Below are positions 8,501-32,384 of a DNA stretch of 34,495 nt, one piece after another. The notes below the pieces were generated by a model. It was not told where the DNA came from. It did not search any database and was given only the letters and a program-made list of their open reading frames with translations. Position numbers and translations under genes: made by a program. The stretch's first letter is position 1; every line of letters starts with the position of its first letter. This DNA comes from a bacterium (GTDB lineage: Bacteria; JAHJDO01): the NCBI GenBank assembly GCA_023129655.1, contig JAGMBN010000002.1:1-34495 (forward strand). Direction: 5' to 3'.

Positions 8501-10365
8501 TTCGTGAGGGAGTAAGCATGCTGGAATATTTTATCTCAACTCATGGGGCTAGAAAAGGTTTGGCAGATACAGCTTTAAAGACTGCAGAAGCAGGATACTT
8601 AACAAGAAGGTTGGTCGACGTAGCGCAAGACGTAGTTGTTACAAGCGAAGACTGCAGAACACTTAACGGAATAAGTGTTACAGCAATTAAAGAAGGAGAC
8701 AAAACTATTGAATCGCTTAAAGACAGGATTGCAGGGAGAACAGCATTGGAAGATATAAAAATACCCTTGCTGGATAATATGATCGTTAAAGCAGGAGAGG
8801 AGATTACGGATGAGATGGCAGAAGTCATAGAGGAGGCAGGAGTAGAGAAGGTAATGATAAGGTCTGTTCTAACATGTGAGCAGGAGAAGGGGATTTGCGC
8901 TAAGTGTTATGGCAGAGACCTTACAACAAAGAACAGAGTTAGAGTTGGAGAAGCTGTGGGAATTGTTGCAGCTCAGTCCATAGGAGAACCTGGAACTCAG
9001 CTTACTCTAAGAACTTTTCATATTGGAGGAACAGCCAGCAGAATAATCGGCGCCTCAAAAATAGCAGCCATTAATGATGGGGTTGTTAAATTTCATGGAA
9101 TAAGAACAGTTGTGGATAAGAACAATAACGTAATAGTGATTAACAGGAATGGAGAAATAGCAGTAGAAAATACAGAAGAAAGGGAGTTGGAAAGATGCAA
9201 TATGCCTTTGGGCAGTATGCTTAAGGTTAAAGATAACGACGCAGTAAAAAGAAAAACTGTACTAGCTGAGTGGGATCCATATGCTTTACCCATAATTTCT
9301 GTAAAGAGTGGGGAAGTAAAATTTATTGATATAATTGAAGGTCTTACAATGAAGACTGAAGTAGATAAGATCACTGGGAAAAAAGAAAAGATTATTACAG
9401 ATTACAGAAGCGCAGGTATGCATACTCAAATATTGATACAGGACAAGGATGGACAGGTGTTAAATTTTCATAGTATCCCAAGTGGAGCGCATCTGACAGT
9501 TAAAGAAGGGGACCAAGTTTTAGTAGGGGATTTGTTAGCAAAGACTACAAGAGAAAGAAGCAAAACCAGAGATATTACAGGAGGATTACCAAGAATTGCT
9601 GAGCTCTTTGAAGCGAGGAGACCTAAGAATCCTGCCATGGTGACAGAGATAGATGGAACAGTGGATGAACCTATTGGGCTTAAAAGGAACATGCGTAGAA
9701 TAACTGTGACAGCAGATAACGGGGATGAAAAAGAATACCTTATTCCTCATGGCAAGCACTTGATCGTTTATAAGGGCGACAGGGTAAAAGCAGGTGATCA
9801 GCTTACAGACGGCTCTGTGATTCTTGATGAAATATTGAGAATAGAGGGAGATAGGAGATTGCAGGAGTATTTATTAAATGAAGTTCAGGAAGTTTATCGG
9901 CTGCAGGGCGTTTATATTAATGATAAGCATATAGGATTAATTGTGAGACAGATGCTTAAAAAAGTTAGCATAGAAGATAGCGGAGATACTAATCTCTTAG
10001 CTGGAGAACAAGTAGACAAAGTTATTTTTAAGAAAGAGAATGAAAGGGTAGTTGCGGAAAACAAAAAACCTGCTAGCGCGATACCGGTTCTCCAGGGTAT
10101 TACAAGAGCGTCTATAAATACAGAAAGTTTTATATCAGCTGCCTCATTTCAGGAAACCACACGAGTTCTAACCAAAGCTGCTGTTTTTTCTAAGGTAGAT
10201 AAATTATTCGGATTAAAAGAAAATGTAATAATCGGACGTTTAATTCCAGCTGGTACAGGGTGGGCTGACTATAGGAATATAACATTAACAGGAGCCGAGT
10301 TATCCGATAAAAAGGGCACGGAAGAGACTAAAGATAATAGTAGCGTAGAAGAGGTAAAAGCTTAA
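2506..10365 (+). CDS. rpoBC: Fused DNA-directed RNA polymerase beta-beta' subunit (RpoB-RpoC single ORF, 2619 aa)
   Basis: The N-terminal ~1240 aa carry RpoB motifs ([55 protein letters not shown], and the RpoB C-terminus [15 protein letters not shown]). The frame continues without a stop through a ~30-aa linker into the RpoC N-terminus ([29 protein letters not shown], the zinc motif CYCGKYK...CDRCGVEV, and the catalytic NADFDGD). Confidence 0.9.
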
Positions 10366-10379
10366 GAAAGGAAATAGAT

Positions 10380-10751
10380 ATGCCAAGATTGTCACAGTTG
10401 ATAAAGAAAAATAGGAAGAAGAGTATAAAGAAAACATCTACTCCTGCTTTAAAGGGTTCTCCTCAAAAGCGAGGAGTATGTACTAGGGTATATACAGTCA
10501 CTCCTAAAAAGCCAAATTCAGCATTAAGAAAGGTGGCTAGAGTGAGATTGACGAGCGGCGTGGAGGTTACAGCTTATATTCCCGGGATAGGACATAATCT
10601 ACAGGAGCATTCAATTGTTTTAATTAGAGGTGGAAGCGTCTCGGACCTTCCGGGTGTTAGATACCATATAGTTAGAGGAGCTTTGGATACTACAGGAGTT
10701 ACGGATAGAAAGAAAAGCAGGTCTAAATATGGTACAAAAAGAGCAAAATAA
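10380..10751 (+). CDS. rpsL: 30S ribosomal protein S12
   Basis: 123-aa ORF with [29 protein letters not shown] and [15 protein letters not shown]. Confidence 0.97.
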
Positions 10752-10763
10752 AGGAGATATGTA

Positions 10764-11231
10764 ATGCCTAGAAAGGGGAGAGTTACTAAAAGGACAATAA
10801 CACCGGATCCTAAATATAATAACCAAATAGTAGCTAAGTTTGTGAATTGTATTATGAAAAGAGGTAAAAAAAGTTTGGCTGAATCCATACTTTATGATTC
10901 TTTAGATATTATAAATAAGACTACAAAAAAAGATTCTTTGGAAGTGTTCAAGCAGGCTCTTGATAATGTAAAACCGGTTTTAGAGGTTAAGTCTAAAAGA
11001 ATCGGAGGCGCTACATACCAAGTGCCTATAGAAGTCAGCTCTGATAGGAGAACAAGTTTGGCTATGCGCTGGATTATAAATTATTCTAAGGCAAGAAAGG
11101 GTAAAAGCATGGGAGAAAAATTGGCGCAGGAAATTATAGACGCGTCTAAAGGCCAGGGAGCTTCCATAAAAAAGAAAGAAGACGTCCATAAAATGGCAGA
11201 AGCTAATAAAGCTTTTGCGCATTATAGATAA
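10764..11231 (+). CDS. rpsG: 30S ribosomal protein S7
   Basis: 155-aa ORF with typical S7 segments ([21 protein letters not shown] and [11 protein letters not shown]) ending in the C-terminal AFAHYR. Confidence 0.97.
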
Positions 11232-14622: not shown

Positions 14623-14835
14623 ATGAGACTAAACTATCATCCTGATACAGATTCGCTTTATATACATCTTGTTGAGCGTTCTGGTGTAGAAGCCCGTGAA
14701 GTCGCGCCTGGAGTTATAGTTGATTTTGACTCGGAAGGTAAATCTGTTGGGATAGACATTGAGCATGCGCAAAATATTATAGACCTTAGTTCTATTCAGG
14801 CAGATTCTTTGCCTGTAAAAATTAAGACTGCATAA
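14623..14835 (+). CDS. DUF2283-family protein (putative antitoxin)
   Basis: 70-aa ORF. MRLNYHPDTDSLYIHL....VIVDFDSEGKSVGIDIEHA matches the remembered DUF2283 pattern (YD.e.DalYi.l ... D.d.dG.ivGiEi). Confidence 0.6.
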   Translation: MRLNYHPDTDSLYIHLVERSGVEAREVAPGVIVDFDSEGKSVGIDIEHAQNIIDLSSIQADSLPVKIKTA

Positions 14836-14925
14836 GACGATTAGGATAAAGAAAAAGGTAGATGATTCAAGTATACGATATTAATAAAAAAGAAGTTGAT
14901 TATATTGGGGTAATTTTTAAGTAAA

Positions 14926-16041
14926 ATGAGAAAGATGGAAACAAAGAAGACAAATAATATTTTTAGGTTAATTCTGTTTGGAATTTTGGCGGTTGGATTT
15001 ACAGGCCATTGTTTTGCCGTTGAAAAAAATCTAGAAGCTTTTGAAAAGGCAAGACAAGATGCATTGCTTTCTCGCTGTAAGTCAAATATAAAGCAGCTAT
15101 TAGCTTGCATAAAAATGTATGCACAAGATTATGATGGCAGGTACCCGGACAAATTATCAGATTTATCTATCTATTTAAAACGACTTGATACATTTACCTG
15201 TCGAGCAAGCAAGGATAAAATTACCAGCAAAAAAGAAATAGATACTAAAAGCAGTTATGAATATAGAGGAGCTGGACTTACCAAAGAAATTGGGGAGAAA
15301 GACCCGGATAAAATCATTTTGATAGAGAAAAATTATAATCATACTATCGATGGAAAACTTGTTCGCTGTGTTGGCTATGCTGGTGGGTATGTGGGGATGG
15401 AGCAACAAAAGATGGAGACAAAAGTATATTCTCCCAATTATAGGTCTGCTCAGGAAATAGAAGAATCATTGAAAAAGGCACTAAAGCCTGATGAGAGAAG
15501 AAAAATTGTTTGTGATAAAAAACGGAACTATTTAATCATTACTGACTCAGTGAGCAACCACAAAAAGATAAAAGAAGCGATAACAAAACTTGACCAGCCT
15601 AAACCTCAATTCCGCATTAAGATTACTAGCGTCAAGACAAAAGAGAATGGAGAACCTGTTAGAAATTCGCAAGAGGTTGTTGCTCTTCTTGATACGCCTG
15701 CAAGCATAAATATTGGAGATAAGGATTTTCCTCCATATTGTCATTATGAAGTCACACCTTCTTTAACAAAGGAAGGCATGATTTTGCTAAAGATGGATTA
15801 TGAAATGGCAGTAAATAAAGGAAAAATAACTGGTGGCAAAAGGCAGTACATCCTAAAAGATGGAGAGACAAAAGAGCTTAGCGGTCCACCAGGAAGCAAA
15901 AGAAAGACTATAATTTTTATAGAAAAAATAAAAGCAAAGAAGTCCACAACTGTAACCGACGAAAATATTATTTATCTCAAAGACAAAAACGAGATTGCTT
16001 CGCCTTCGGCTCGCAATGACAAAAGGAATATTTCCAAGTGA
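14926..16041 (+). CDS. Secreted chimeric protein: pseudopilin-like (DUF1559-type) module plus secretin N-domain-like module
   Basis: 371-aa ORF with a signal-peptide-like N-terminus (FRLILFGILAVGFTGHCFA|VEK). RCKSNIKQLLACIKMYAQDYDGRYP resembles the post-helix segment of type II pseudopilin/DUF1559 proteins. YRSAQEIEESLKKALKPDERRKIVCDKKRNYLIITDSVSNHKKIKEAITKLDQPKPQFRIKI resembles a secretin N (NolW-like) domain. The stop overlaps the rplW GTG start (GTGA). Confidence 0.45.
   Translation: MRKMETKKTNNIFRLILFGILAVGFTGHCFAVEKNLEAFEKARQDALLSRCKSNIKQLLACIKMYAQDYDGRYPDKLSDLSIYLKRLDTFTCRASKDKITSKKEIDTKSSYEYRGAGLTKEIGEKDPDKIILIEKNYNHTIDGKLVRCVGYAGGYVGMEQQKMETKVYSPNYRSAQEIEESLKKALKPDERRKIVCDKKRNYLIITDSVSNHKKIKEAITKLDQPKPQFRIKITSVKTKENGEPVRNSQEVVALLDTPASINIGDKDFPPYCHYEVTPSLTKEGMILLKMDYEMAVNKGKITGGKRQYILKDGETKELSGPPGSKRKTIIFIEKIKAKKSTTVTDENIIYLKDKNEIASPSARNDKRNISK
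15992..16020 (-). repeat. Inverted short copy of the GTCATTGCGAG...GCAATCT element
   Basis: AGATTGC at 15992-15998 and CTCGCAATGAC at 16010-16020 are exact reverse complements of GCAATCT and GTCATTGCGAG in the copy at 14180-14225. The element is embedded in the last codons of the 371-aa ORF (..EIASPSARNDK..). Confidence 0.6.
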
Positions 16042-18463: not shown

Positions 18464-18892
18464 ATGGCATTAATTCCAAAACGCGTCAAACATAGAAAGG
18501 TGCACAGAGGGCGTATGCAGGGAATATCCTGCAGGGGGCATAATGCGAGTTTTGGAGAATATGGTTTAAAGGCTTTAGAATGCGCGTGGATAACCAGCCG
18601 TCAGCTTGAAGCTGCAAGAATTGCAATGACAAGATACATCAAACGAGGCGGCAAGGTTTGGATAAGAGTAGTTGCTGACAAGCCTGTAACAAAAAAACCG
18701 GCTGAGACCAGAATGGGAAAGGGAAAAGGAGCGCCTGAGTACTGGGTTTCAGTTATCAAGCCTGGCAGGGTTTTGTTTGAGCTGGGCGGTATTTCAGAAG
18801 ATTTAGCGAGGCAGGCTATGAAACTTGCATCAACAAAACTGCCGATAAAAACACGATTTGTGATCAGAGGAAAATTAGGGGTAACATCATAA
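18464..18892 (+). CDS. rplP: 50S ribosomal protein L16
   Basis: 142-aa ORF with [15 protein letters not shown] and [19 protein letters not shown]. Its stop overlaps the next ATG (TAATG). Confidence 0.97.
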
Positions 18893-18912
18893 TGAAGGTT
18901 AGTAAGTTTAGA
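18891..18912 (+). repeat. Left copy of a perfect 22-bp direct repeat (AATGAAGGTTAGTAAGTTTAGA), a copy of the rpmC initiation region
   Basis: Identical at all 22 positions to 27003-27024. It contains an ATG plus 6 further codons (MKVSKFR). Confidence 0.9.
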
Positions 18913-21900
18913 AAAAATAATATAGGTGACAATAGAATGATCATCAAAAGAATAATCACATTAGTCAGTATAGCGCTTCTATTTTTCTGCGCAGCAGCCT
19001 TTAATTTATCAGCCGAAGTAGTACAAACCGATACAAGCATAAACAGTTTTAATCCCCCACCAAAAAGCACGTTGAATGTAACATCAGAAGGCAGCATATC
19101 AACCATGCAAGCAGATTCATCAGGCAGAGTTGCTCACTGGAAATTTGATGAAGGCAGTGGAACTGTAGCTTATGATTCTGTTGGTACTAATCATGGAGCA
19201 ATACAAGGTGCCACCTGGGTTAGCGGTGTAATTGGTGGTGCGTTGAGTTTTGATGGCATAGATGATTATGTTAACTGTGGTAGTGATAGTAGCTTAGATT
19301 TTGGTGACGGAACTGATGACTTTCCGTTCTCTTTTGCTGCTTGGCTAAAACGAGATAGTAATACAGTTATTCTTTCTAAATATGATACCTCAAATTATCC
19401 AGGTCCCCTTAGCCAGCAATATTCGCTTTCTGCTCGTCTTAATAAATTCACGGTTAGTATATTTGATACATCTGGAGATTATAGAAAAGGGATAATAACA
19501 ACTAATACATTTGATTTAAACTGGCATCATTTAGTAGCAACTTATGATGGTAGTAGTACAGTTGCCGGGCTTAACTTATATGTAGATGGCATTAAGCAAG
19601 CAGTTGACGTAATATATGATGATCCTCGGTATGTAGCTATGGAAGTTACGAGTGTTTCATTTAAAATAGGATCTTCTATTGATTCAGTGGGAACACATCA
19701 TTTTTTTGATGGCATAATGGACGAAGTCGCAATCTACAATCGCGCACTAGCTCCATCAGAAATCCGACAACTTTATATGAAAGACGAAAAAGGAGTGCCT
19801 CAAAATTGGAGTCTTTCACCGGATGACCCAGCACATCCATGCAACAATTCTTCAGATCCGGTAAATATAACCAACGGTGCTCTGACTAAAGTAGAACGTG
19901 ATATCTATATTCCTGCCAGAGGTATCCCCACATACATAGAGCGGGCATACAACAGCCGCAATACATATGACGGTCCATTTGGTTATGGCTGGACGTTTAA
20001 CTACAATACCAGTTTGACAGAGAATGCCGGCTTAGATGTAACGTGGACAGACGAAGATGGCAGCTTGTTATTCTTTGATGAAGATAACGGCTCTTATGCC
20101 AGCCCAAGCGGCTGTTATGCCACTTTAACCAAAACTGATAATATTTTCACTCTGACCCAAAAACACGGCATCAAGTATATCTTTGAAAATCAGGACACTG
20201 ATGCCAGCACTTATGAATTAAGCAGGATAGAAGACCCCAACGGCAATGCCATAACATTAACCTACAGTGGTGGCCTGTTAACCAAGCTAACTGATCCGTC
20301 CAATCGGGATCTTATCTTTACATATTCAGGCAACAGGATTGCATCTATCGCAGACGCAGATAATAGGACGGTTTTCTATACTTATGACGTTGAAGGCGAT
20401 TTAGTCAAGGCAATAGACGCTGATGGCAAAGAAACCACTTATATTTACACAGGCCACAATATCACTACTGTTACTGACCCGGAAGGACATCAATGGCACT
20501 GGGCATATGATGAAAATGACAGGTGCATCAAACAAACAGATGATCTCGGTCGTGAAATGATCTTTGATTATGATTTTATCTCACGCACAACAACCTTAAC
20601 AAACGAAAAAGGCAATGAGACAATATATGTATTTAATCCCAACGGTTTTATTGACCAGATAACAGATGCGTATGGCGACAGCACAATCTATACATGGGGC
20701 GAGGATATAAACCGCAGCGGTATAATTGACAACAACGGTAACCAGACCAAATTTACTTATGATGAGAACGGCAATCTAATCCAAACAGAAGACGCTTTGG
20801 GTAATATCACAACCTATACCTATGAACCTGTTTATAATTTAGTCGCTTCAGTTACAGACGCAAAGGACAACACCACTACCTACGACTATGACACAAAGAG
20901 CAACCTGACCAAAATCACAGATGCTTTGGGCAATGAGACCGCATTTACCTACGATACCTATGGCCAGATGAAAACCATGACCGATGCCAATAACCACATT
21001 ACCAGTTTTGTTTATGACACTTACGGCAATCTGACTAATACAACCGACGCTCAGGGGAACCCGACCGCTTTCACCTATGATATACTCGGCAACAATACCT
21101 CAATCACTAATGCCAATAACCACACCACGAGTTTTACGTATGACCAATTGAGCAGACTAACGCAAATAACATATCCGGATAATACTAAAGCTGCCTACAC
21201 ATACGATGCTAACGATAACTTAATTACCTTTACAGATCCAAATGACAACACCACTACCAACACCTACAACGAATTCAATCAGCTGTCCGCAGTTACAGAC
21301 GCCTTGGGTCAAACCACCAGTTCAACCTATGATGAAGTCGGCAACCGAATAACTGTAGCTGATGCCAAAGACAATATAACCTCATATGTCTACGATAAAG
21401 TAAACCGCTTAATTAAAACGACAACTGCGCTAGGTAAAGAAAGCAGTTTCACTTACGATCCTGTAGGCAACCAGCTCGCAGTAACAGATGCCAAAGACAA
21501 CACCACAAGCTATACCTATGACTTGCTCAATCAGCTGACCCAGATAAAATATGCTGATAACAGCACAGTAGATTACACATACGACGAGCTTGGCAGAAGA
21601 ACATCCATGGCAGACAGTACAGGAACAACAACATACGAATATGACAATCTGAACCGCGTAGTCTCTGTAGGAACAGGGCTTGCCCCTGTCCGTTACGATT
21701 ATGACAAGGTCGGCAACAGAATCTCCATGACAGATCAGAATGAAGGCGTAACAGGTTATCAGTATGATGAATTAAACAGACTTGTCTCTTTAACAGCTCC
21801 GAACGGCAAGATGACGAATTATTCTTATGATTCAGTTTCCAATTTAACGAATATGAACCTGCCGAATAACACGCAGGTAAATTATCAGTTTGACAATCTG

Positions 21901-24054
21901 AATAGGCTCCTAAATCTGACAAATAAAAAGAATAGTGGAGATAATATCTCCTCATTCAATTATGAATATAACTTAGCAGGCATGAGAAACAAGGTAATGC
22001 TTGCGGATGGAAGCTATATTGAATATGAGTATGATGATTTGAACAGGCTTACAAAGGAAGCAAAGTACGATCCACAGAGAAATGTCCTTTATTCCAATAC
22101 CTACGAATTTGATTCAGCAGGAAACAGGTTAAAGCTGACCAAGCTGGTTCATGGAACTCTGGAAGAGAAAAGTTTTGAGGATGATTTTAACAGGAGAAAG
22201 TTGGGAGATAATTGGCAGGTTGTAGACGGCAGGTGGAGAATAATAGGAAGAAGATGGCTGTTTGGCTGGGCGAGAAACAAGGGTGAAGTTATTTACAACA
22301 GTGAAGACAGCATTGGTAACTTTGAAGCGGAAGTGGACCTTAGCAGAATATATTTGAGGTATAAAAGAGCTCAGTTGGCAGGTATCAGTTATCAGGGGGC
22401 AGAAGGAAGAAGAGTTGCAGGAGTAAAAGGAGAGTTAAAGAAGTATCTGGAGAAGAAGAAAGTCAAGAGAACGATAATTATATGGAAATGGAAGAAGGTA
22501 AAAATCTGGAGATGGTACAGATGGGTCAGGTATCCAGTAAAGAAAACATACTGGAGATGGAAATATCATTGGAGAATTAAGAGGCAGGTTAGTTATGTAT
22601 TAGGACATTATGAAGAAAGCACTCTTGTTGAGGATGCTGTATTTACAGAAAAGACAAAGAGACCTGTATTTAGTAAGAGAATAAAGGTAAAGGTAGAGGA
22701 TGAAAAGGCGGAACTGTTTGCGAAAGAGAACGGAGATTGGGTAAAAAAGATTGAGTTTGTATATCCAAGCACAGAAGATGGAAAAGTTGGGTTATTTGTT
22801 CATGGCAAAAGAGTTGCATATGCAAGGTTTGATAATTTTAAACTGACATATCAGGTCGGGACTCTGCCACAGGAAGAAATCATCAACTACGCTTACAATG
22901 AAGAGAATCAGCTTCTTACCGTTGACAACGGACAGGGGCAAGCCCTGTCCCTACAATACGATGACAATGGAAATCTAGTAAAAAAAGATGATAGTCAAGG
23001 TGCAATAGATTATTCGTGGGATTATGAGAATAGATTGGTTGGCATAGATTATTTGGATGGAAGTTCTGATAGTTACACTTACGATGGAGTAGGTAAGCGA
23101 ATACAAACGAGTGAGGACGGAATTGTTACTAATTACTTGTATGACGGATTGAATTGTATAATTGAGCAGGACAATACAGGTCTAACAACTGCTAGTTATG
23201 TGCGTGGATTAGGATATAGCGGAGGGATTGGGTCGATAGTTAGTAAGCAGACACCAGTAAACGGTAAACAGTATTACTATTATGATGGAATAGGCAATGT
23301 TGTCAATCTTGCTGACAACTGTGGACTGACAACTGATAACTTTGCTTACGACGCATACGGCAATATTCTTAATAGTGCAATCCCAAATCCGCATGGCTTC
23401 TCAACAAAAGAATATTCTCGTCGGTCAGGATTAAGCTATTTTGGCGCTCGCTATTATGACTCTCGGATTGGCAGATGGACGCAGCCGGATCCATTAGGCA
23501 TGGTAAACGGTCCGAATTTGTATCTATATGTGAATAACAACCCGATTAACAACATAGATCCTCATGGTCTTATGCTCAGGAGGCTTAAGAATCTTTGGGA
23601 TATTAGTGGATTTGGAAGGGCTAGAAAAAGCTCCTTTAGAATTAGAACTACTGTTGTCACAAAAACTAATGCCACAGGAGGAAAAGCTTCCCAAAAGACG
23701 AAAGGATGTAGCACCAAGTCAACAAGTAGTAGTAAAGCGTATTGGAAAGGATTTGGTGGGAGTCTGAAAGATCAAGCATGGTCAATGACACATCCGTTTG
23801 CTTCAGGAGCATACAAAAAGAGCGCATTAGGACAATCTGCAGGTGCTGGTCGTTTTACTAAGTACGGAACAAGAGTCGCTATGGGAACAGCGGGAGTTGC
23901 TACAGCTGGTTATTTCGCAGCTCCTTATATAATAAAGAAAATTGCCCCTCTCTTAATTGTAGGAGCTATGGAACTGGCAACAGGAACAATGCCTCCTGTT
24001 GTTTATACGATAAGCAATCAAGTACGAACTGTAATACAAATGGTTATTAAATGA
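18892..24054 (+). CDS. RHS/YD-repeat polymorphic toxin with signal peptide, LamG-like lectin domain, an intra-shell jelly-roll insert and an unassigned C-terminal toxin tip
   Basis: 1720-aa ORF. The signal peptide is MIIKRIITLVSIALLFFCAAAFNLSAEV; the native start is possibly M16 at 18937. The LamG-like region (about 19126-19776) includes ALSFDGIDDYV...WHHLVATYDG...LYVDG...FDGIMDEVAIYNRAL. Dozens of YD repeats follow (e.g. YTYDANDNLITFTD). The RHS core ends YFGARYYDSRIGRWTQPDPLG...YLYVNNNPINNIDPHGL at 23557-23571, followed by a 160-aa tip at 23572-24051. Confidence 0.9.
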   Translation: MKVSKFRKNNIGDNRMIIKRIITLVSIALLFFCAAAFNLSAEVVQTDTSINSFNPPPKSTLNVTSEGSISTMQADSSGRVAHWKFDEGSGTVAYDSVGTNHGAIQGATWVSGVIGGALSFDGIDDYVNCGSDSSLDFGDGTDDFPFSFAAWLKRDSNTVILSKYDTSNYPGPLSQQYSLSARLNKFTVSIFDTSGDYRKGIITTNTFDLNWHHLVATYDGSSTVAGLNLYVDGIKQAVDVIYDDPRYVAMEVTSVSFKIGSSIDSVGTHHFFDGIMDEVAIYNRALAPSEIRQLYMKDEKGVPQNWSLSPDDPAHPCNNSSDPVNITNGALTKVERDIYIPARGIPTYIERAYNSRNTYDGPFGYGWTFNYNTSLTENAGLDVTWTDEDGSLLFFDEDNGSYASPSGCYATLTKTDNIFTLTQKHGIKYIFENQDTDASTYELSRIEDPNGNAITLTYSGGLLTKLTDPSNRDLIFTYSGNRIASIADADNRTVFYTYDVEGDLVKAIDADGKETTYIYTGHNITTVTDPEGHQWHWAYDENDRCIKQTDDLGREMIFDYDFISRTTTLTNEKGNETIYVFNPNGFIDQITDAYGDSTIYTWGEDINRSGIIDNNGNQTKFTYDENGNLIQTEDALGNITTYTYEPVYNLVASVTDAKDNTTTYDYDTKSNLTKITDALGNETAFTYDTYGQMKTMTDANNHITSFVYDTYGNLTNTTDAQGNPTAFTYDILGNNTSITNANNHTTSFTYDQLSRLTQITYPDNTKAAYTYDANDNLITFTDPNDNTTTNTYNEFNQLSAVTDALGQTTSSTYDEVGNRITVADAKDNITSYVYDKVNRLIKTTTALGKESSFTYDPVGNQLAVTDAKDNTTSYTYDLLNQLTQIKYADNSTVDYTYDELGRRTSMADSTGTTTYEYDNLNRVVSVGTGLAPVRYDYDKVGNRISMTDQNEGVTGYQYDELNRLVSLTAPNGKMTNYSYDSVSNLTNMNLPNNTQVNYQFDNLNRLLNLTNKKNSGDNISSFNYEYNLAGMRNKVMLADGSYIEYEYDDLNRLTKEAKYDPQRNVLYSNTYEFDSAGNRLKLTKLVHGTLEEKSFEDDFNRRKLGDNWQVVDGRWRIIGRRWLFGWARNKGEVIYNSEDSIGNFEAEVDLSRIYLRYKRAQLAGISYQGAEGRRVAGVKGELKKYLEKKKVKRTIIIWKWKKVKIWRWYRWVRYPVKKTYWRWKYHWRIKRQVSYVLGHYEESTLVEDAVFTEKTKRPVFSKRIKVKVEDEKAELFAKENGDWVKKIEFVYPSTEDGKVGLFVHGKRVAYARFDNFKLTYQVGTLPQEEIINYAYNEENQLLTVDNGQGQALSLQYDDNGNLVKKDDSQGAIDYSWDYENRLVGIDYLDGSSDSYTYDGVGKRIQTSEDGIVTNYLYDGLNCIIEQDNTGLTTASYVRGLGYSGGIGSIVSKQTPVNGKQYYYYDGIGNVVNLADNCGLTTDNFAYDAYGNILNSAIPNPHGFSTKEYSRRSGLSYFGARYYDSRIGRWTQPDPLGMVNGPNLYLYVNNNPINNIDPHGLMLRRLKNLWDISGFGRARKSSFRIRTTVVTKTNATGGKASQKTKGCSTKSTSSSKAYWKGFGGSLKDQAWSMTHPFASGAYKKSALGQSAGAGRFTKYGTRVAMGTAGVATAGYFAAPYIIKKIAPLLIVGAMELATGTMPPVVYTISNQVRTVIQMVIK

Positions 24055-24527
24055 AAGAGTATAGATACTCAACTATAGAAAAAGTAAAACTTGTAATAAT
24101 GGACATAGTGGTTCAAATAATAGTTGGTGCTTTTTGTCTCCTTCTTAGCCAAATTTATCTTCTTAAATATATTATATGGATACCTTTTGCATGGCTAGCC
24201 TATCATTCATTTAGGTTAACTAGTATTACATTTACGATTATCTTTAAGACAGATGATGTTGGATTAACACTAATGCGTAATAAAGACAAGATGAAAATTG
24301 CTTGGGAAGAGATTGAAAAGATTAATATAACCAGACGAAGAGGAGAGATAGTAAGGCTTGATATTTTTCATAGAATTTTGAAAAAACGGGTGCTTATAGA
24401 CGATGGTTTTAAAAACTATAAAGAGTTGTTTGAGACCATATTGATCAATGTGAAAAAAAAGAACAATAAGGTTGTTATTGTTGAAAAAACAGAAGACCTT
24501 TTTCATAAGGGAAAAAATAAATGCTAG
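24051..24527 (+). CDS. Putative cognate immunity protein (two transmembrane helices plus a small soluble domain)
   Basis: 158-aa ORF. Its start overlaps the RHS stop (ATGA). Hydrophobic stretches are LVIMDIVVQIIVGAFCLLLSQIYLL and IIWIPFAWLAYHSF. The position immediately 3' of an RHS toxin tip is the classical immunity location. No recognisable family. Confidence 0.55.
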   Translation: MKEYRYSTIEKVKLVIMDIVVQIIVGAFCLLLSQIYLLKYIIWIPFAWLAYHSFRLTSITFTIIFKTDDVGLTLMRNKDKMKIAWEEIEKINITRRRGEIVRLDIFHRILKKRVLIDDGFKNYKELFETILINVKKKNNKVVIVEKTEDLFHKGKNKC

Positions 24528-24576
24528 AAAGTAGCTTAGCATTAAAACTTGAAGATTTTGAAGAAAGAATAATGGA

Positions 24577-27000
24577 ATGAAATATATGCGTAAGTTATTA
24601 TTTACACTTAAAATTATTATAATACTTGTAATTATAGCCGTTGGATATGTTGGAGTCCGATTCCTTACTAAGTGTATGTATAAACCTGACAAAAAAGAAG
24701 GAAGTTATTTTCTTGGTAAAGTTGGAGATAGAATAATCACTTATCATTTGGACGAAAAAGGATCGCCTCAAAATGAAAGCCTGCCGCCGGACGACCCTGC
24801 TTATCCATGCAATAACGAATCCAGTATGGTGAATATAACCAACGTAGCTCTAACTAAAGTAGAACGCGATATCTATATCCCGGCCAGAGGCATACCAGCA
24901 TACATAGAGCGGGCATACAACAGTCGCAGTACATGTGACGGTCCCTTTGGTTACGGCTGGACGTTTAATTACAATACCAATTTAACTGAAAGAGCAGACT
25001 TAGACATAACATGGATGGACGAAGACGGAAGTCAGCTATTCTTCAATAAAGATAATGGCGTCTATACCAGCCCAAGTGGCTGTTATACTGTCTTAACCAA
25101 AACCGGCAATATTTTCACTCTGACCCGAAAACACGGCATTAAGTATATCTTTAAAAACAAGGATGCCGATGCAGAAACTTATGAACTGATCAAGATAGAA
25201 GATCCTAACGGCAATGCTATAACCTTAACCTACAACGTCGGTTTGTTAACTAAAGTAACTGACACAGCCGGAAGGGATATTGCCTTTACCCATTCAGGTA
25301 GCAGGATAACATCTGTCACAGACGCAGATAACAAGACGGTTTTCTATACTTATGATGTTGATGGCAATTTAATCAAGGTAACAGACCTTGACGGCAAAGA
25401 AACCACTTATATCTACACAGACCGCAATATCACTACCATCACTGACCCGAGAGGCTATCAATGGCACTGGATCTATGATGAAAATGACAGATGCATCAAG
25501 CAGATAGATGATCTGGGCAGGGAAATAACCTTTGATTACGATTTTACCTCGCGCACAACAACCTTAACAAATGAAAGAGGTAATGAGGCAATATATGTAT
25601 TTAATCCTAACGGTTTTATTGACAAGATAACTAGTGTCTATGGCGACAGCACAATTTATACATGGGACGATAATATAAATCGAACAGGTGTAATTGACAA
25701 CAACGGAAATCAGACCAAATTTACTTATGATGAAAACGGCAATTTAACCAAAACAGAAGATGCTTTAGGCAACATCACAACTTACACCTATGAACCTGTT
25801 TACAATTTAGTCACTTCAGTTACGGATGCAAAGGGCAACACCATTGCCTACGACTATGATGCAAATGGCAACCTGACCAAAATCATAGATGTTTTGAGTA
25901 ATGAGACCACCTTTACTTACGATATTTATGGTCAGATGAAAACTATGACCGACGCCAATAATAGCACGACCAATTTCGTTTATGACACTTACGGCAACCT
26001 GACTAATACAACCGACGCTCAGGGGAACCCGACCACTTTTACCTATGATATACTCGGCAATAATACCTCAATCACTAATGCCAATAACCATACTACGAGT
26101 TTTACATATGACCAATTGAGCAGACTAACGCAAATAACATATTCTGATAATACTAAAACTACCTACACATACGACACTAACGATAACTTAATCACCTTTA
26201 CAGACCCCGATAACAATACCACTACCAACACCTACAACGAATTTAATCAGATGTCCGCAGTTACAGATGCATTAGGTCAGACCACAAGCTCTACCTATGA
26301 TGAAGTAGGCAACCGAATAGCTGTTACTGATGCAAAAGGGAATATAACCTCATACGCTTATGACAAAGTAAACCGCTTAATTAAAACAACAACTCCTTTA
26401 GGCAAAGAAACCAGATTCGCTTACGACGCTGTAGGTAACAAGACCGCAGTAACCGATGTAAAAGGCAATGTCACATCATATACTTATGACTTACTCAATC
26501 AGTTAATTCAGATAAAATATGCCGATAGCACTACTGTAGATTACACATATGATGAGCTTGGCAGAAGAACGTCTATGACAGACAGCACAGGAACAACAAC
26601 TTATGAATATGACAATCTAAGCAGACTAACAAAGGAAATAGCATCGTCAGGGAAGTGGATAGCTTATACATATGATGCTATGGGTAACAGAGTGTCAATG
26701 ACAGACACAACAGGAACAACCAGTTATGAATATGACAATTTAAGTAGACTAACAAAGGAAATAACATCGTTAGGGAAGTGGATAGCTTGTACCTACGATG
26801 CGGTCAGCAACAGAGTGTCAATGACAGATCAGAACGGAGTGGTAACAACGTATCAGTATGATGAATTAAACAGACTTCTCTCTCTAACAGCTCCGGATGG
26901 CAAAGTAACAACTTACAAGAGGGAAAAGTGGACAGACACCTTTTTTGAAGGTAAACTAAATGACACAAAGCAATTTAGCATTAAAACCAGAATGGAATGA
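24577..27000 (+). CDS. Truncated RHS/YD-repeat paralog (N-terminal TM anchor plus shell repeats; no LamG, no RHS core, no toxin tip)
   Basis: 807-aa ORF. From 24751 to about 26916 it is collinear and highly similar to 19783-21822 of the large RHS gene. It lacks the DPxGL core. Its stop (26998-27000) is 3 nt before the rpmC ATG. Confidence 0.8.
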   Translation: MKYMRKLLFTLKIIIILVIIAVGYVGVRFLTKCMYKPDKKEGSYFLGKVGDRIITYHLDEKGSPQNESLPPDDPAYPCNNESSMVNITNVALTKVERDIYIPARGIPAYIERAYNSRSTCDGPFGYGWTFNYNTNLTERADLDITWMDEDGSQLFFNKDNGVYTSPSGCYTVLTKTGNIFTLTRKHGIKYIFKNKDADAETYELIKIEDPNGNAITLTYNVGLLTKVTDTAGRDIAFTHSGSRITSVTDADNKTVFYTYDVDGNLIKVTDLDGKETTYIYTDRNITTITDPRGYQWHWIYDENDRCIKQIDDLGREITFDYDFTSRTTTLTNERGNEAIYVFNPNGFIDKITSVYGDSTIYTWDDNINRTGVIDNNGNQTKFTYDENGNLTKTEDALGNITTYTYEPVYNLVTSVTDAKGNTIAYDYDANGNLTKIIDVLSNETTFTYDIYGQMKTMTDANNSTTNFVYDTYGNLTNTTDAQGNPTTFTYDILGNNTSITNANNHTTSFTYDQLSRLTQITYSDNTKTTYTYDTNDNLITFTDPDNNTTTNTYNEFNQMSAVTDALGQTTSSTYDEVGNRIAVTDAKGNITSYAYDKVNRLIKTTTPLGKETRFAYDAVGNKTAVTDVKGNVTSYTYDLLNQLIQIKYADSTTVDYTYDELGRRTSMTDSTGTTTYEYDNLSRLTKEIASSGKWIAYTYDAMGNRVSMTDTTGTTSYEYDNLSRLTKEITSLGKWIACTYDAVSNRVSMTDQNGVVTTYQYDELNRLLSLTAPDGKVTTYKREKWTDTFFEGKLNDTKQFSIKTRME
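26575..26820 (+). repeat. Tandem duplication, 2 x 123 nt, inside the RHS paralog
   Basis: Units at 26575-26697 and 26698-26820 encode MTD(S/T)TGTT.YEYDNLSRLTKEI.S.GKWIA.TYDA..NRVS twice. The large RHS gene has a single equivalent unit. Confidence 0.85.
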
Positions 27001-27002
27001 GG

Positions 27003-27024
27003 AATGAAGGTTAGTAAGTTTAGA
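27003..27024 (+). repeat. Right copy of the perfect 22-bp direct repeat (the authentic rpmC start)
   Basis: Identical to 18891-18912. Confidence 0.9.
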
Positions 27025-28990: not shown

Positions 28991-29386
28991 ATGCCTGTAA
29001 CAGATCCAATATCAGATATGCTTACATCCATTAGAAATGCTTATATGGTTCATAAAGGTTGTTTATCTGTATCTGCTTCTACATTGAAGGTGGATATAGT
29101 AGGTATCCTAAAAAAAGAAGGGTTCATTCAGGATTATAAAGTTGAGGCCAATAATAGCCATAAAATTATAGAAATAGATCTGCGCTATTATAAAAAAGAA
29201 CCTATGGTAAGAGGTTTGGAAAGAGTAAGCAAACCAGGTCTGCGTATATATGTACCTGCTTCTAAAATCCCCAGAGTAAAGAGAGGCTCAGGAATAGCTA
29301 TCCTATCTACTTCAGAAGGCATAATGACTGATAAGGAATGTCGGGTAAAGAAAATCGGAGGCGAGGTTATTTGTTATGCATGGTAA
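28991..29386 (+). CDS. rpsH: 30S ribosomal protein S8
   Basis: 131-aa ORF with DPISDMLTSIRNA and GIAILSTSEGIMTDKE. Confidence 0.96.
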   Translation: MPVTDPISDMLTSIRNAYMVHKGCLSVSASTLKVDIVGILKKEGFIQDYKVEANNSHKIIEIDLRYYKKEPMVRGLERVSKPGLRIYVPASKIPRVKRGSGIAILSTSEGIMTDKECRVKKIGGEVICYAW

Positions 29387-31616
29387 CTGCTTGACTAAAA
29401 TAGAAAAAGCCTCAGGGAAAAATTTGTGGTATGAGACAAAATTGAGAAGGATGATGACTGGCTGGAGTTTTCCAGACAGAGATCAACTAAAAAACTATAA
29501 TATGTCATTAGAAGGGTACGAAAAATTAGAAAAAATAATAAATAATAATCTTGATGCGAAAAAGATGGTAAGTAAATTAAAGGAAATTGATGCTGAAGTA
29601 TTTTATTTTCATGCTAAATCACATAGTGGAAATGCCTGGTATAACACGAGGATTGGACATAAACATTCAGCATTGAGAGGAAGAGATTTTGTAGCCGAAT
29701 TAGTCAGAGAATGCAGGAAGAATGACATCTCTCCTGTCTGTATGCTTCAGGTAACAACTGATGTGAGAGTATATGATGAGCATTCTAAGTATAGAAAAGT
29801 GAGTAATAAAGGGATCTCTTTTAGACCATATGTATGCATAAACAATCCTTCATGGAGAAAAAAAGTTTTATCACAGATAGAAGAGATAGTTGCTAATTAC
29901 GATATTGATGGGATCTTGTTGGATGAGTTTGATTTTTCCCATTTCAACGTAAAAGATATTATGTGTTATTGTCTACATTGCCAAAAGATGTTTAGAGCGA
30001 AGTATGGTAGCGATATTCCCAAAGAACCAGCATGGGATAGTTCCCTATGGAAGCATTTTGTCTTATGGAGATATGAAGTAGTTGCAGATTTTCTTAGAGA
30101 GGTAAGAAAGCTTATTAAAAAAATAAAACCTAAAGTTTCACTTAGCCTGATATCTTACGCACACAGTTGGACTAACTGGAGCTTAGGACAGGCTACCGAA
30201 CTTTGCGCGCAGCATCTTGACTATCTTTGCGTGGATACTCATGGATGTTTAAATCTTAGCCAAACAGCTCGGTTCTTTCGTGCATTTAGCAAAGGGAAAC
30301 CAGAGCTTATAATATGGGGTACCTCCAATTTTGGTGGTGTGCGAGATAGAATGCTAATAAAGCCATATCCTGAATATATGACCGAAGCGATGACCATTAT
30401 TGCAAATGGTTTATCTTTAGGGATAGATATATGTTATCAGCCTATTCATGAGAAAGGCATTTGGGACTCCAATATAATGAAGATGAGTAGTAACATAATG
30501 AAAGAGATAGGAAAAAGAGAGAAATACCTAAGCAATGATATGATTCCCCTGTCCGATACAGCTTTATACTATTCAGAGAACTCAAGAGATTTTTACGCTA
30601 AGGATACGCCACAAAAATATTTTAATTCGTACATGGGGACATATAAAGCATTGTTAGAAAAACAGGTGCTTTTTGATATTATTGGCGATAGACACCTAAA
30701 TCAGAAGACGCTGAAGAAATATAAGGCGATAATTTTACCATCCGCAGTTTGTTTATCCAATACTCAGATAGAAAACATAACTACATATGTAGAAAACGGT
30801 GGTGGGTTAGTAGCCACCTATAAAACATCCCTATGCAATGAAATGGGAAATAAGCAGGGTAATTTTGGTTTATCTAAATTATTTGGAGTTGATTATAAAT
30901 CAGAAGGCTCCAGAGGCGATTATAAACTTTTTGGAAAGGATAATACTTCTGAGCACTGGTATTTAAAGATGGAATCCAACTGTCATATAAGTAAGTATTT
31001 GGAGCAGATCTGTGTTTTACGGACTCCAACGACTATAGTCAAAGCACTTGATGGCACTAAAGTTATGGGCGAGTTTTGTCAGGGGAAAGCTGTAGACATC
31101 TGTGGAGGGATGATGATTTCCCCATTTATAGGAAACGTTACAATACACCCTGCAGTCGTGGCTAATAAGGTTGGTAAAGGAAGAGTAGTATATATAGCAG
31201 CAAAATTAGGGAGTCTTTATGGAACAACTGGGCATCCATATGCGCAAGCACTTTTAGTTAATGCACTTAACTGGGCTACTAAAGGAGTAAAAGAAGTAAA
31301 AGTTAATGCGCCAAGGGGTATAGAGGTCACAGCATTTAAACAAATGAATGGCAAGAAAATAATTGTTCATTTAGTAAATCTTCAGTCTGTTCCTTTACGA
31401 GTTACCAACTATAGAGATAACAGTTCAGTCCAGGATATTTTACCTATACACAGTATTGAGATGAAAATTCAGATAGAAAAATGTAGAAGAGTAAAAAGTG
31501 TCTATCTTGTCCCAGGAAAAACAAAAATAGATTATAAATTTTGCAACAAAAATACCATTGAGTTGATAGTTCCGGAGGTAAAAATTCATATAATGGTAAT
31601 AATAGAATTAATTTAG
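29376..31616 (+). CDS. Putative glycoside-hydrolase-like TIM-barrel protein (GHL6-like) with a GH42-type trimerisation/GATase-like domain
   Basis: 746-aa ORF. Its start overlaps the last 11 nt of rpsH. FYFHAKSHSGNAWYNTRIGHKH...RDFVAELVRECRKNDI...VCINNPSWRKKVLSQIEEIVANYDIDGILLDEF and CYCLHCQKMF fit my recollection of GHL6. KKYKAIILPSAVCLSNTQIENITTYVENGGGLVATY fits a beta-galactosidase trimerisation-like domain. No signal peptide. Confidence 0.45.
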   Translation: MHGNCLTKIEKASGKNLWYETKLRRMMTGWSFPDRDQLKNYNMSLEGYEKLEKIINNNLDAKKMVSKLKEIDAEVFYFHAKSHSGNAWYNTRIGHKHSALRGRDFVAELVRECRKNDISPVCMLQVTTDVRVYDEHSKYRKVSNKGISFRPYVCINNPSWRKKVLSQIEEIVANYDIDGILLDEFDFSHFNVKDIMCYCLHCQKMFRAKYGSDIPKEPAWDSSLWKHFVLWRYEVVADFLREVRKLIKKIKPKVSLSLISYAHSWTNWSLGQATELCAQHLDYLCVDTHGCLNLSQTARFFRAFSKGKPELIIWGTSNFGGVRDRMLIKPYPEYMTEAMTIIANGLSLGIDICYQPIHEKGIWDSNIMKMSSNIMKEIGKREKYLSNDMIPLSDTALYYSENSRDFYAKDTPQKYFNSYMGTYKALLEKQVLFDIIGDRHLNQKTLKKYKAIILPSAVCLSNTQIENITTYVENGGGLVATYKTSLCNEMGNKQGNFGLSKLFGVDYKSEGSRGDYKLFGKDNTSEHWYLKMESNCHISKYLEQICVLRTPTTIVKALDGTKVMGEFCQGKAVDICGGMMISPFIGNVTIHPAVVANKVGKGRVVYIAAKLGSLYGTTGHPYAQALLVNALNWATKGVKEVKVNAPRGIEVTAFKQMNGKKIIVHLVNLQSVPLRVTNYRDNSSVQDILPIHSIEMKIQIEKCRRVKSVYLVPGKTKIDYKFCNKNTIELIVPEVKIHIMVIIELI

Positions 31617-32376
31617 CTGTGGAGGACACTATAATACTTTTCTCGGGAGAATGAATAAAATGCTAAAAACCATTACAAAGCCAGAACAAAAAGCATTAAG
31701 AGAATTCAAGAGGCTTTTAGGGGAATCTTTGCCTGAAGAGATAGTGCTAATGAAGCTTTTTGGTTCTAAGGCGCGCGGGGATGCGCGAAAGGATTCTGAT
31801 ATTGACGTGTTGGTTGTGACCAAAAGCGATGATTGGCGTATGTGCGATGTGGCTTGTGGTATAGCTACTGATATACTTCTTGAAAATGATATTCTAATTT
31901 CTCCAAAAGTAATAGGAAAAAGTCATTATGACTATATTAACAATTTACAAACACCGTTTATCAAAAACGTCAATAGGGAAGGTATTGCTTTATGAATGAG
32001 AAACTGCGGCAACTTATAGATGGAGAAATGACTAGAGCTGATAGTGCGCTTGTGGCTTCGAAAGTGCTTTTTGAGAAAGAATTACTTGAAGATGCTGTTT
32101 CAAGAGCGTATTATGCGTCGCTTCATGTAGCTAAAGCAGCTTTGTTGTCAAAAGGAATAGAGACATCAAGTCATAGAGGCGTGCTTTCTATGTTTGGCTT
32201 GCATCTTGTTAAGTCAGGCGATATTGAAATAGAATACGCTAAAATGTTAGCCGTTGAGAAAGAAGACAGAGAGATAGGTGATTATGATATTACGGTAGAA
32301 ATAAGTGAGGAAAGAGCCGAAGAAAGAGTAGAAGAAGCTGAAAAATTTGTTGAAAGGATAAAGAGGTTTCTAAAGC
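29387..32376 (+). other. Accessory island C inserted between rpsH and rplF (GHL6-like gene plus MNT-HEPN pair)
   Basis: rpsH and rplF are normally adjacent. Here 3.0 kb of non-ribosomal sequence separates them. Confidence 0.75.
31651..31995 (+). CDS. Minimal nucleotidyltransferase (MNT) antitoxin
   Basis: 114-aa ORF with the G-S...D-x-D motif (LFGSKARGDARKDSDIDVLVV). Its stop overlaps the HEPN start (ATGA). An alternative start is the ATG at 31660. Confidence 0.8.
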   Translation: MNKMLKTITKPEQKALREFKRLLGESLPEEIVLMKLFGSKARGDARKDSDIDVLVVTKSDDWRMCDVACGIATDILLENDILISPKVIGKSHYDYINNLQTPFIKNVNREGIAL

Positions 32377-32384
32377 ATGTCTAG
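31992..32384 (+). CDS. HEPN-domain protein (toxin partner of MNT)
   Basis: 130-aa helical ORF with RAYYASLHVAKAALLSKGIETSSHRGVLSMF and EDREIGDYD, typical of PF05168-type HEPN proteins. It overlaps the rplF start by 8 nt. Confidence 0.75.
   Translation: MNEKLRQLIDGEMTRADSALVASKVLFEKELLEDAVSRAYYASLHVAKAALLSKGIETSSHRGVLSMFGLHLVKSGDIEIEYAKMLAVEKEDREIGDYDITVEISEERAEERVEEAEKFVERIKRFLKHV

Follow-up and report, generated by a model that had tools for sequence, protein, structure and literature searches.

A rare RHS toxin tip and its adjacent immunity candidate, possibly membrane-acting, in a ribosomal protein operon of an uncultivated bacterium

The 34,495-nucleotide (nt) stretch of bacterial DNA analyzed here (GenBank assembly GCA_023129655.1, contig JAGMBN010000002.1; hereafter, the window) is a rif/str/S10/spc ribosomal super-operon. 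Between rplP and rpmC, this operon carries an 8.1-kb island (18913-27024) with a gene for a rearrangement hotspot (RHS) protein of 1720 amino acids (aa). Our subjects are the C-terminal tip of this protein and the 158-aa product of the open reading frame (ORF) that follows it. The pair has a defined domain anatomy, falls in no known catalytic family, and belongs to a rare family in which toxin and immunity genes are linked, modules are exchanged, and the genes are under purifying selection. An earlier note, made from the sequence alone, had proposed that the tip is a membrane-inserting or pore-forming effector neutralized in the membrane. This interpretation is plausible and consistent with the evidence presented below, and it is less novel than proposed.

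The RHS protein comprises, in order, a signal peptide, a Laminin_G_3 domain (aa 124-291), DUF6531 (aa 322-395), an RHS/YD shell, the Rhs_assc_core domain, and the tip, and thus has the signal peptide and LamG domain that the earlier note had named. Because the 22-nt direct repeat at the left end of the island is the rpmC start, the RHS ORF opens with the first seven codons of L29; an alternative start is M16. The start codon overlaps the rplP stop as TAATG. A sister RHS protein from a related genome (P0003) has a classic signal peptide (cleavage between VSA and Q). A Pfam scan of the 1720-aa protein found 21 PF05593 stretches of RHS repeats (E 5e-96), and the match to TIGR03696 (aa 1486-1560, E 2e-23) terminates in DPHGL, exactly where the RHS core had been read to end. 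The protein therefore has both marks of an RHS/YD polymorphic toxin, which are a YD/RHS shell and an Rhs-associated core with DPxGL at its end. In the PDB, the solved cores of RHS, Tc, and teneurin proteins align up to the DPHGL site, and none aligns past it. From the behavior of the family, self-cleavage is predicted after L1560, between DPHGL and the following M. The identical locus was recovered in independent assemblies.

The tip that follows DPHGL consists of 160 codons (23572-24051) and has 25 K+R versus 3 D+E. Its translation has the layout described earlier, with a basic K/S/T-rich stretch and then two Gly/Ala-rich hydrophobic segments. The tip is real, but it is modular and is not a toxin over its whole length. 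The sister protein P0003 (1675 aa) is 86% identical to the window tip over residues 1-60 only and then continues into an unrelated C-terminus. Because P0003 carries this linker with a different toxin, the first ~55 tip residues lie outside the polymorphic toxin module. The toxin module is thus the last ~105 aa (23737-24051), beginning with AYWKGFGG (aa 1616, nt 23737), and it is strongly basic (11 K+R versus 2 D+E). Its N-terminal motif keeps G, F, S, Q, H, and P without exception in the first alignment. Across the two hydrophobic helices, a glycine-zipper-like stripe of small residues with an invariant Gly is kept in register. The hydrophobicity of the window tip is moderate, with a 19-residue Kyte-Doolittle (KD) maximum of 1.53 versus the usual transmembrane (TM) threshold of 1.6. 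The homologous segments of relatives reach KD values of 1.67-2.07, with uncharged runs of 17-44 residues.

Neither the tip nor the 158-aa ORF matched any entry in Pfam, NCBIfam, PADLOC, PHROGs, or the PDB sequences, and the tip and the 105-aa module found nothing in Pfam even at E<=10. The earlier statement that no nuclease, deaminase, ADP-ribosyltransferase, or peptidase family can be seen was borne out by these profile and sequence libraries and by the PDB. Colicin-type pore domains and the Pfam glycine-zipper families were rejected for the tip because there was no Pfam match. Family profiles of the toxin and of the immunity protein returned only noise from the PDB; the best profile match, Bok (E 0.048), was rejected because the alignment falls on the wrong part of Bok. 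Models were computed with AlphaFold2 from an alignment of 7 sequences for the tip and 2 sequences for the immunity protein. The tip model has a predicted local distance difference test (pLDDT) score of 45.9, with helices at residues 53-73, 94-115, 119-138, and 141-159 and a disordered linker. For the 158-aa protein (pLDDT 45.8), only the TM helix region is moderately confident.

The family of the tip is rare. When 1.84 billion representative proteins were scanned exhaustively with phmmer (E<=1e-3), the tip matched six of them, and one further relative came from a metagenome-assembled genome (MAG) in GTDB. A word-indexed homology search with the 160-aa tip gave zero matches, and the same type of search with the family alignment gave three short subfamily-B fragments (see below) only. 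Known members were missed, so this type of search under-estimates the size of the family. Scanning metagenome contigs with the toxin alignment found nothing, and searches of viral contigs and plasmids yielded no relatives. There is no Pfam domain in the tip of any relative.

Two subfamilies can be distinguished. Subfamily A has five full-length members, which are the window tip, the terminus of the main RHS protein on MAG contig DAOVKY010000021.1 (locus L010), and P0004, P0006, and P0008 (loci L011, L012, and L013, respectively). The last three are short orphan RHS C-terminal modules that open with the leader MIQGNLALKLEDFEEDYC…LPDNIIQFP, and phmmer aligns their extreme C-termini to tip residues ~50-160 with 36-41% identity. 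Common to subfamily A are the GFxxSLxDQ...HP motif, the small-residue stripe, an (L/M)PP turn, and a C-terminal NQxRTxIxxxIK helix that is present in 5/5 members. The window tip is the most divergent of them (31-36% identity). The toxin varies most in its hydrophobic core, where the four relatives are 19-43% identical to one another, versus 62-86% in the flanks. The toxin module has a ratio of nonsynonymous to synonymous substitution rates (dN/dS) of 0.18.

Subfamily B (P0005, P0007, P0009, and P0010) belongs to other lineages and shares tip residues ~55-118 only, namely GFxxSLxxQxxSMTHPF…SALGQ…YYGTR plus one Gly/Ala helix. These tips continue into other, His/Trp-rich C-terminal domains, and the downstream ORFs (at the P0005 and P0010 loci) are soluble and unrelated. 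Tips are thus exchanged as in other RHS systems, in that P0003 combines the same shell with another toxin and the tip family is also found on orphan modules. In L011, the gene for P0003, whose ~100-aa tip is different and unannotated, precedes one (7552-8232) for an Rce1/CPBP-like polytopic membrane protein of 226 aa, which is likely its immunity protein.

The 158-aa ORF overlaps the RHS gene by ATGA, as had been noted. Its product begins with a basic N-terminus, followed by a TM hairpin (aa ~14-64, nt 24090-24242) and a K/R-rich soluble domain of ~90 aa (nt 24243-24524). Of the two TM helices predicted in the earlier note, one is strong (aa 14-36, KD up to 2.7). The second (aa ~39-65) is weaker and aromatic-rich in the window protein, but it is clearly hydrophobic in all homologues. 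In every homologue the N-terminus is basic, two hydrophobic peaks follow, and the C-terminal domain is rich in K/R. Applying the positive-inside rule to these proteins yields a hairpin with both ends inside, which suggests this topology, with a cytoplasmic C-terminal domain, for the 158-aa protein as well. Sub-threshold Pfam matches of homologues to YcxB (E 0.029, L013) and DUF6585 (E 0.0014, L011) are compatible with a layout of two TM segments plus a pleckstrin homology (PH)-like domain, as in bacterial PH-like (bPH/YcxB-like) membrane proteins, where a PH-like beta-sandwich with a C-terminal helix comes after two N-terminal TM helices; the AlphaFold pLDDT of the soluble domain is <50.

A homologue of this ORF (152-178 aa) follows 5/5 subfamily-A tips, each time with an ATG that overlaps the toxin stop. 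The sole database match of the window ORF itself is P0002 (83% identity), which occurs in loci L001-L006 as an orphan copy between housekeeping genes (e.g., L003 9846-10474). The toxin has been deleted there, and upstream of P0002 the orphan-module leader is joined directly to the last toxin codons (…NIIQFSILKTLFIK, then the stop). An ORF that survives deletion of its toxin shows typical immunity-gene behavior. Scanning metagenome contigs with the immunity alignment recovered only this known orphan locus. The dN/dS values of the immunity ORF are 0.27 (window versus L003) and 0.44 (L011 versus L012). Because the tip and the ORF each have homologues, are constantly adjacent, and are under purifying selection, their pairing goes beyond chance.

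Several further ORFs were seen next to the immunity genes of relatives. Downstream of P0002 are membrane or secreted ORFs of 113 aa and 224 aa, and the cassette is flanked by repeats. Directly 3' of the immunity gene, tandem ORFs encode two-TM hairpins of 69-77 aa, with four in L010 (4309-5265) and one in L011 (10085-10312). In size and topology these small proteins resemble the immunity proteins of ionophore toxins from contact-dependent growth inhibition (CDI) systems, and they are absent from the window.

Table 1. Positions in the window of the RHS gene, its parts, and the surrounding island features
Feature	Position	Strand	Basis or remark
Left copy of a perfect 22-nt direct repeat, AATGAAGGTTAGTAAGTTTAGA	18891..18912	+	
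RHS polymorphic toxin gene, 1720 aa	18892..24054	+	Pfam/NCBIfam domain matches; alignment to PDB RHS cores
Predicted Sec signal peptide, aa 1-41, predicted cleavage before E	18892..19014	+	
Unannotated ~225-aa insert in the RHS shell	22177..22854	+	Also present in P0003
Rhs-associated core with aspartyl autoprotease plug; DPHGL at 23557-23571	23347..23571	+	TIGR03696; PDB core alignment
Basic Ser/Thr/Lys-rich linker, tip aa 1-55, predicted disordered	23572..23736	+	Common to P0003; AlphaFold
Conserved N-terminal part of the toxin module, tip aa 56-100, AYWKGFGGSLKDQAWSMTHPF...SALGQ...YGT	23737..23871	+	Common to subfamily-B tips
Two Gly/Ala-rich hydrophobic helices, tip aa 102-121 and 124-146, with KK between	23875..24009	+	
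C-terminal amphipathic helix, ...ISNQVRTVIQMVIK and stop, hydrophobic moment 0.44	24010..24054	+	Stop overlaps immunity-gene start
Cognate immunity candidate, 158 aa	24051..24527	+	ATGA overlap with RHS stop; conserved adjacency
Truncated leader element (…SLALKLEDFEE…)	24514..24569	+	5' end of relatives' orphan modules (MIQGNLALKLEDFEEDYC…)
Chimeric ORF, 807 aa	24577..27000	+	Comparison with L011 and the window RHS
Right copy of the 22-nt repeat, AATGAAGGTTAGTAAGTTTAGA; true rpmC start	27003-27024	+	

We favor a reading, which we hold to be moderately probable, in which the tip is a membrane-inserting, depolarizing toxin that is neutralized by the two-TM immunity protein. The LamG-RHS protein would be exported by Sec, with its shell enclosing the ~17-kDa C-terminal tip until the aspartyl-protease plug, as in other family members, frees the tip at the junction of DPHGL and M. 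The toxic part would be the last ~105 residues, predicted to be small, basic, and all-helical, with an amphipathic N-terminal helix, the two Gly/Ala helices, and an amphipathic C-terminal helix. Delivered to the periplasmic face of a neighbor's cytoplasmic membrane, the module may then insert and dissipate the potential as an ionophore or small pore; pore formation is proposed here by analogy with characterized toxins. The producer would be protected by the 158-aa protein, an inner-membrane two-helix hairpin with both ends in the cytoplasm, which most likely binds the toxin's hydrophobic helices inside the bilayer. In most comparisons, but not in all, the immunity ORF varies more in its TM half than in its soluble half. 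Together with the variable toxin core, this suggests recognition within the membrane, as judged from five pairs, which fall short of proof.

Several observations weigh against this reading. The hydrophobic segments of the window tip fall just under the TM threshold and are broken by KK and E, and the low confidence of both AlphaFold models leaves room for a compact enzyme fold. The invariant polar residues S, Q, and H of the N-terminal motif could be catalytic or ligand-binding. Co-variation between the toxin core and the TM half of the immunity protein is inconsistent across pairs (n=5), and most of the immunity protein consists of a cytoplasmic domain that could equally neutralize a toxin acting in the cytoplasm. 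Finally, the motif and first helix also occur in the P0005 and P0010 tips, which have other C-terminal domains and soluble neighbors, so these elements may serve for membrane entry and not for killing.

This last point leads to the most credible alternative, which we nevertheless consider unlikely. In this alternative, the Gly/Ala region is a translocation module for membrane entry or anchoring, as in Tde1, and killing resides elsewhere; the GFxxSLxDQ...HP motif and the C-terminal helix may bind and inhibit a membrane target such as a lipid carrier, a transporter, or the divisome. Subfamily B speaks for it, since tip aa 55-118 are joined there to unrelated His/Trp-rich domains and followed by ORFs for soluble, non-TM proteins. 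The polar character of the invariant residues (S, Q, H, and P) fits as well, and translocation that depends on a glycine zipper has a precedent (PMC10240207). However, subfamily A has only ~55 residues past the first helix, most of which form the second hydrophobic helix, and this is too short for an enzyme domain. In addition, the immunity partner is membrane-embedded in every subfamily-A case, and no known target-binding or catalytic family was detected.

It is quite improbable that the tip is an enzyme, soluble and with a fold not yet described, such as a small RNase or another toxin that targets nucleic acids or NAD in the cytoplasm of the target cell, with the hydrophobic helices as its core. 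Immunity would then be conferred by the ~90-aa cytoplasmic domain, with the hairpin merely tethering it to the membrane. Enzymes make up the majority of RHS tips (Zhang et al. 2012, PMC3482391), and the conserved His, Gln, and Ser, the strongly basic charge of the module, and the sizeable conserved cytoplasmic domain of the immunity protein would all suit such an enzyme. Against it stand the long uncharged Gly/Ala/Ile/Leu runs of the relatives, with their KD values of up to 2.07, and a prediction that is all-helical with no confident globular fold. No toxin family or PDB chain was matched, even by the family profile, and the hydrophobic core evolves fastest, which is the opposite of what is expected for the core of an enzyme. 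A highly improbable explanation is that a rearranged island holds the tip and the ORF as a module in decay and that the ORF encodes an unrelated small membrane protein, because, despite the scars of the island (a truncated leader and an 807-aa chimeric RHS fragment with neither core nor toxin) and the divergence of the window tip within its family, the 1720-aa RHS ORF with its core and DPHGL is intact, adjacency with an overlapping start is kept in all five loci, dN/dS is <0.5 for both genes, and independent assemblies agree on the locus.

The insert in the RHS shell holds a 41-aa segment, KRTIIIWKWKKVKIWRWYRWVRYPVKKTYWRWKYHWRIKRQ (aa 1192-1232, nt 22465-22587), with 8 W, 9 K, and 7 R. By analogy with the amphipathic surface of the Tse5 shell (PMC10684867), this segment is a candidate membrane-interface binding element, and it is also reminiscent of cationic Trp-rich membrane-binding peptides. 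Relatives carry different inserts at that position of the shell, which are Ig-like in L010 and of another type in P0008. At the insert, local GC skew flips, reaching +0.40.

The island as a whole looks like a mobile cassette that hijacks the start of a host gene in the ribosomal protein operon, and no plus-strand terminator-like site was found inside it. A relative has a similar arrangement. In L011, a 57-nt direct repeat (95%; 2480-2536 and 11117-11173) flanks an 8.6-kb island at the pilQ start, after pilM/N/O/P, which contains an RHS gene, the CPBP-like immunity gene, an orphan RHS C-terminal module with its immunity gene, the small 2-TM ORF, and a 223-aa ORF. The RHS island of L010 lies upstream of rplD. 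A second copy of the leader element listed in Table 1 is found in the window at 26953-27008. This leader, TAAATGATACAAGGTAACCTAGCATTAAAACTAGAAGATTTTGAAGA, which encodes MIQGNLALKLEDFEE…, is found again where cassettes join and where islands end on the right, with further copies in L011 (8275, 10338, and 11052), L003 (~9846-9908 and ~11600), and L010 (5285-5355). As a repeat at cassette junctions, it is possibly a recombination site for the exchange of modules.

The chimeric ORF downstream of the immunity candidate derives its ends (the N-terminal 60 aa and the C-terminal KLNDTK) from the membrane-anchored protein of 223 aa that L011 retains intact (10405-11076). Its interior is an RHS shell fragment with 76% identity to aa 295-1001 of the window RHS protein. 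We rejected this ORF as a second toxin; because it is a chimera with no core and no toxin tip, it is a recombination remnant.

The rest of the window has features of its own. The rpoB and rpoC genes are fused into one ORF of 2619 aa (2506-10365), in which Rpb2 domains 1-7 precede Rpb1 domains 1-5. A DUF6036 nucleotidyltransferase gene (24-560) lies ahead of rplA, and fusA is missing between rpsG and tuf. A GHL10-like 746-aa protein and an NTP_transf_2/HEPN pair are encoded between rpsH and rplF (29376-32384), and a DUF2283 protein and a signal-peptide-bearing Secretin_N protein between rplD and rplW (14623-16041). The latter, a periplasmic protein (14926-16041) with a single Secretin_N domain, was overlooked in the earlier note, which had reported no secretion-system marker in the window. 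We rejected it as a true secretin because it has no Secretin pore domain and its N1-like domain alone aligns to PilQ. With regard to PAAR and VgrG the earlier report stands, since a domain scan of the 34,495 nt found neither of them and no gene for a type VI secretion system (T6SS).

That no T6SS accompanies this RHS protein raises the question of how a Sec-exported RHS protein reaches the inner membrane of a neighbor. A far-reaching proposal, improbable in our estimate, addresses this question along with the origin of the island. The pair would be the founding example of an ionophore-type toxin-immunity family in which immunity is provided by a TM hairpin with a PH-like cytoplasmic domain. 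The toxin would be carried by a T6SS-independent, Sec-exported RHS protein of an uncultivated diderm, and its outer-membrane exit or target contact would depend on a secretin like those of type IV pili or type II secretion systems, given that the island of a relative sits between pilP and pilQ. The 8-kb mobile cassette would insert at the first codons of genes in highly expressed operons (here rpmC, in S10/spc), duplicate 22-57 nt, and hijack the start codon and translational coupling.

If the favored membrane-toxin reading is true, the repertoire of polymorphic toxins would gain a compact (~105 aa) membrane-depolarizing toxin, together with a membrane immunity protein of a new type, from an uncultivated lineage. 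This would be a second case, unrelated in sequence, in which an RHS cage transports an integral membrane toxin. The relation to tips with soluble immunity proteins would offer a natural experiment that separates the membrane-entry and pore functions of glycine-zipper segments. The setting is also unusual, with a toxin island wired into a ribosomal protein operon and direct repeats on either side.

Among known systems, the nearest comparison is with Tse5 (RhsP1, PA2684) of Pseudomonas aeruginosa. Its C-terminal fragment, Tse5-CT, is a non-enzymatic RHS tip with TM helices that depolarizes cells via ion-selective pores, and its immunity protein, Tsi5, has two TM segments (PMC9637101, PMC10684867). 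The likeness extends to the RHS cage and, as predicted for the window protein, to a non-enzymatic fragment (~16 kDa in Tse5) with TM and amphipathic helices and to its release by an aspartyl-protease plug. Tsi5 has two predicted TM segments in the cytoplasmic membrane, and the window protein resembles it in this respect, likewise by prediction only. In contrast, Tse5 is PAAR-like and delivered with VgrG by the T6SS, whereas the window protein lacks PAAR and instead carries a LamG domain behind a Sec signal peptide, and its immunity protein bears an extra cytoplasmic domain of ~90 aa. The tip and the family profile matched no PDB chain at E<=10 save noise, in a set that includes the Tse5 shell (8cp6_B) and in which the presence of a Tse5-CT chain is unconfirmed.

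CDI ionophores are small alpha-helical toxins that share a glycine zipper alone and are polymorphic, with an entry part and an ionophore part (PMC11630599). [quoted passage not shown] The window pair may resemble the CdiA-CT EC93 family in having a small helical module with a stripe of small residues and an immunity protein with two hydrophobic peaks, whose topology and toxin contacts are predicted. However, the CDI toxins are carried by CdiA of two-partner secretion systems with a VENN boundary, whereas the carrier here is an RHS protein with DPHGL. The CdiI proteins have 72-100 aa and no soluble domain, versus 158 aa with a soluble domain. The CDI toxins are predicted to form a five-helix bundle, versus four low-confidence helices here, a comparison made by description and not by sequence.

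Two other systems use similar segments. The N-terminal Gly-zipper segment of Tde1, an Agrobacterium T6SS DNase, permeabilizes the membrane (PMC10240207) and corresponds to the module common to subfamilies A and B. Tde1 has a DNase domain behind its zipper, whereas the window module has only the second hydrophobic helix and an amphipathic tail of 14-20 aa. EsxX and TspA of the Staphylococcus aureus type VII secretion system (T7SS) have a C-terminal glycine-zipper domain that depolarizes the membrane, a polymorphic carrier, and a polytopic membrane immunity protein (PMC12744356). In that case, the carrier is an LXG protein of the T7SSb in monoderms, the sequences are unrelated, and there is no RHS cage.

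With regard to export, WapA of Bacillus subtilis is a Sec-dependent RHS/YD toxin that has a signal peptide, lacks PAAR and VgrG, and combines a polymorphic tip with an adjacent immunity gene. The WapA tips are tRNases, and its host is a monoderm. Relatives of the window genome encode secretins (PilQ), which indicates a diderm envelope, unlike that of the WapA host. The earlier suggestion of a possibly new toxin-immunity family stands insofar as the pair is rare, unannotated, and conserved (5/5 loci plus the orphan copy), and it must be narrowed insofar as the kind is known from Tse5-CT/Tsi5 and the CDI ionophores. Given that no sequence similarity was found in the PDB set searched, the lack of any PAAR, VgrG, or CdiA context, the Sec signal peptide with LamG, and the extra cytoplasmic domain, the pair is not a demonstrable member of the Tse5, CDI, or EsxX/TspA systems; it is a new sequence family of an already known, Tse5-CT/Tsi5-like kind.

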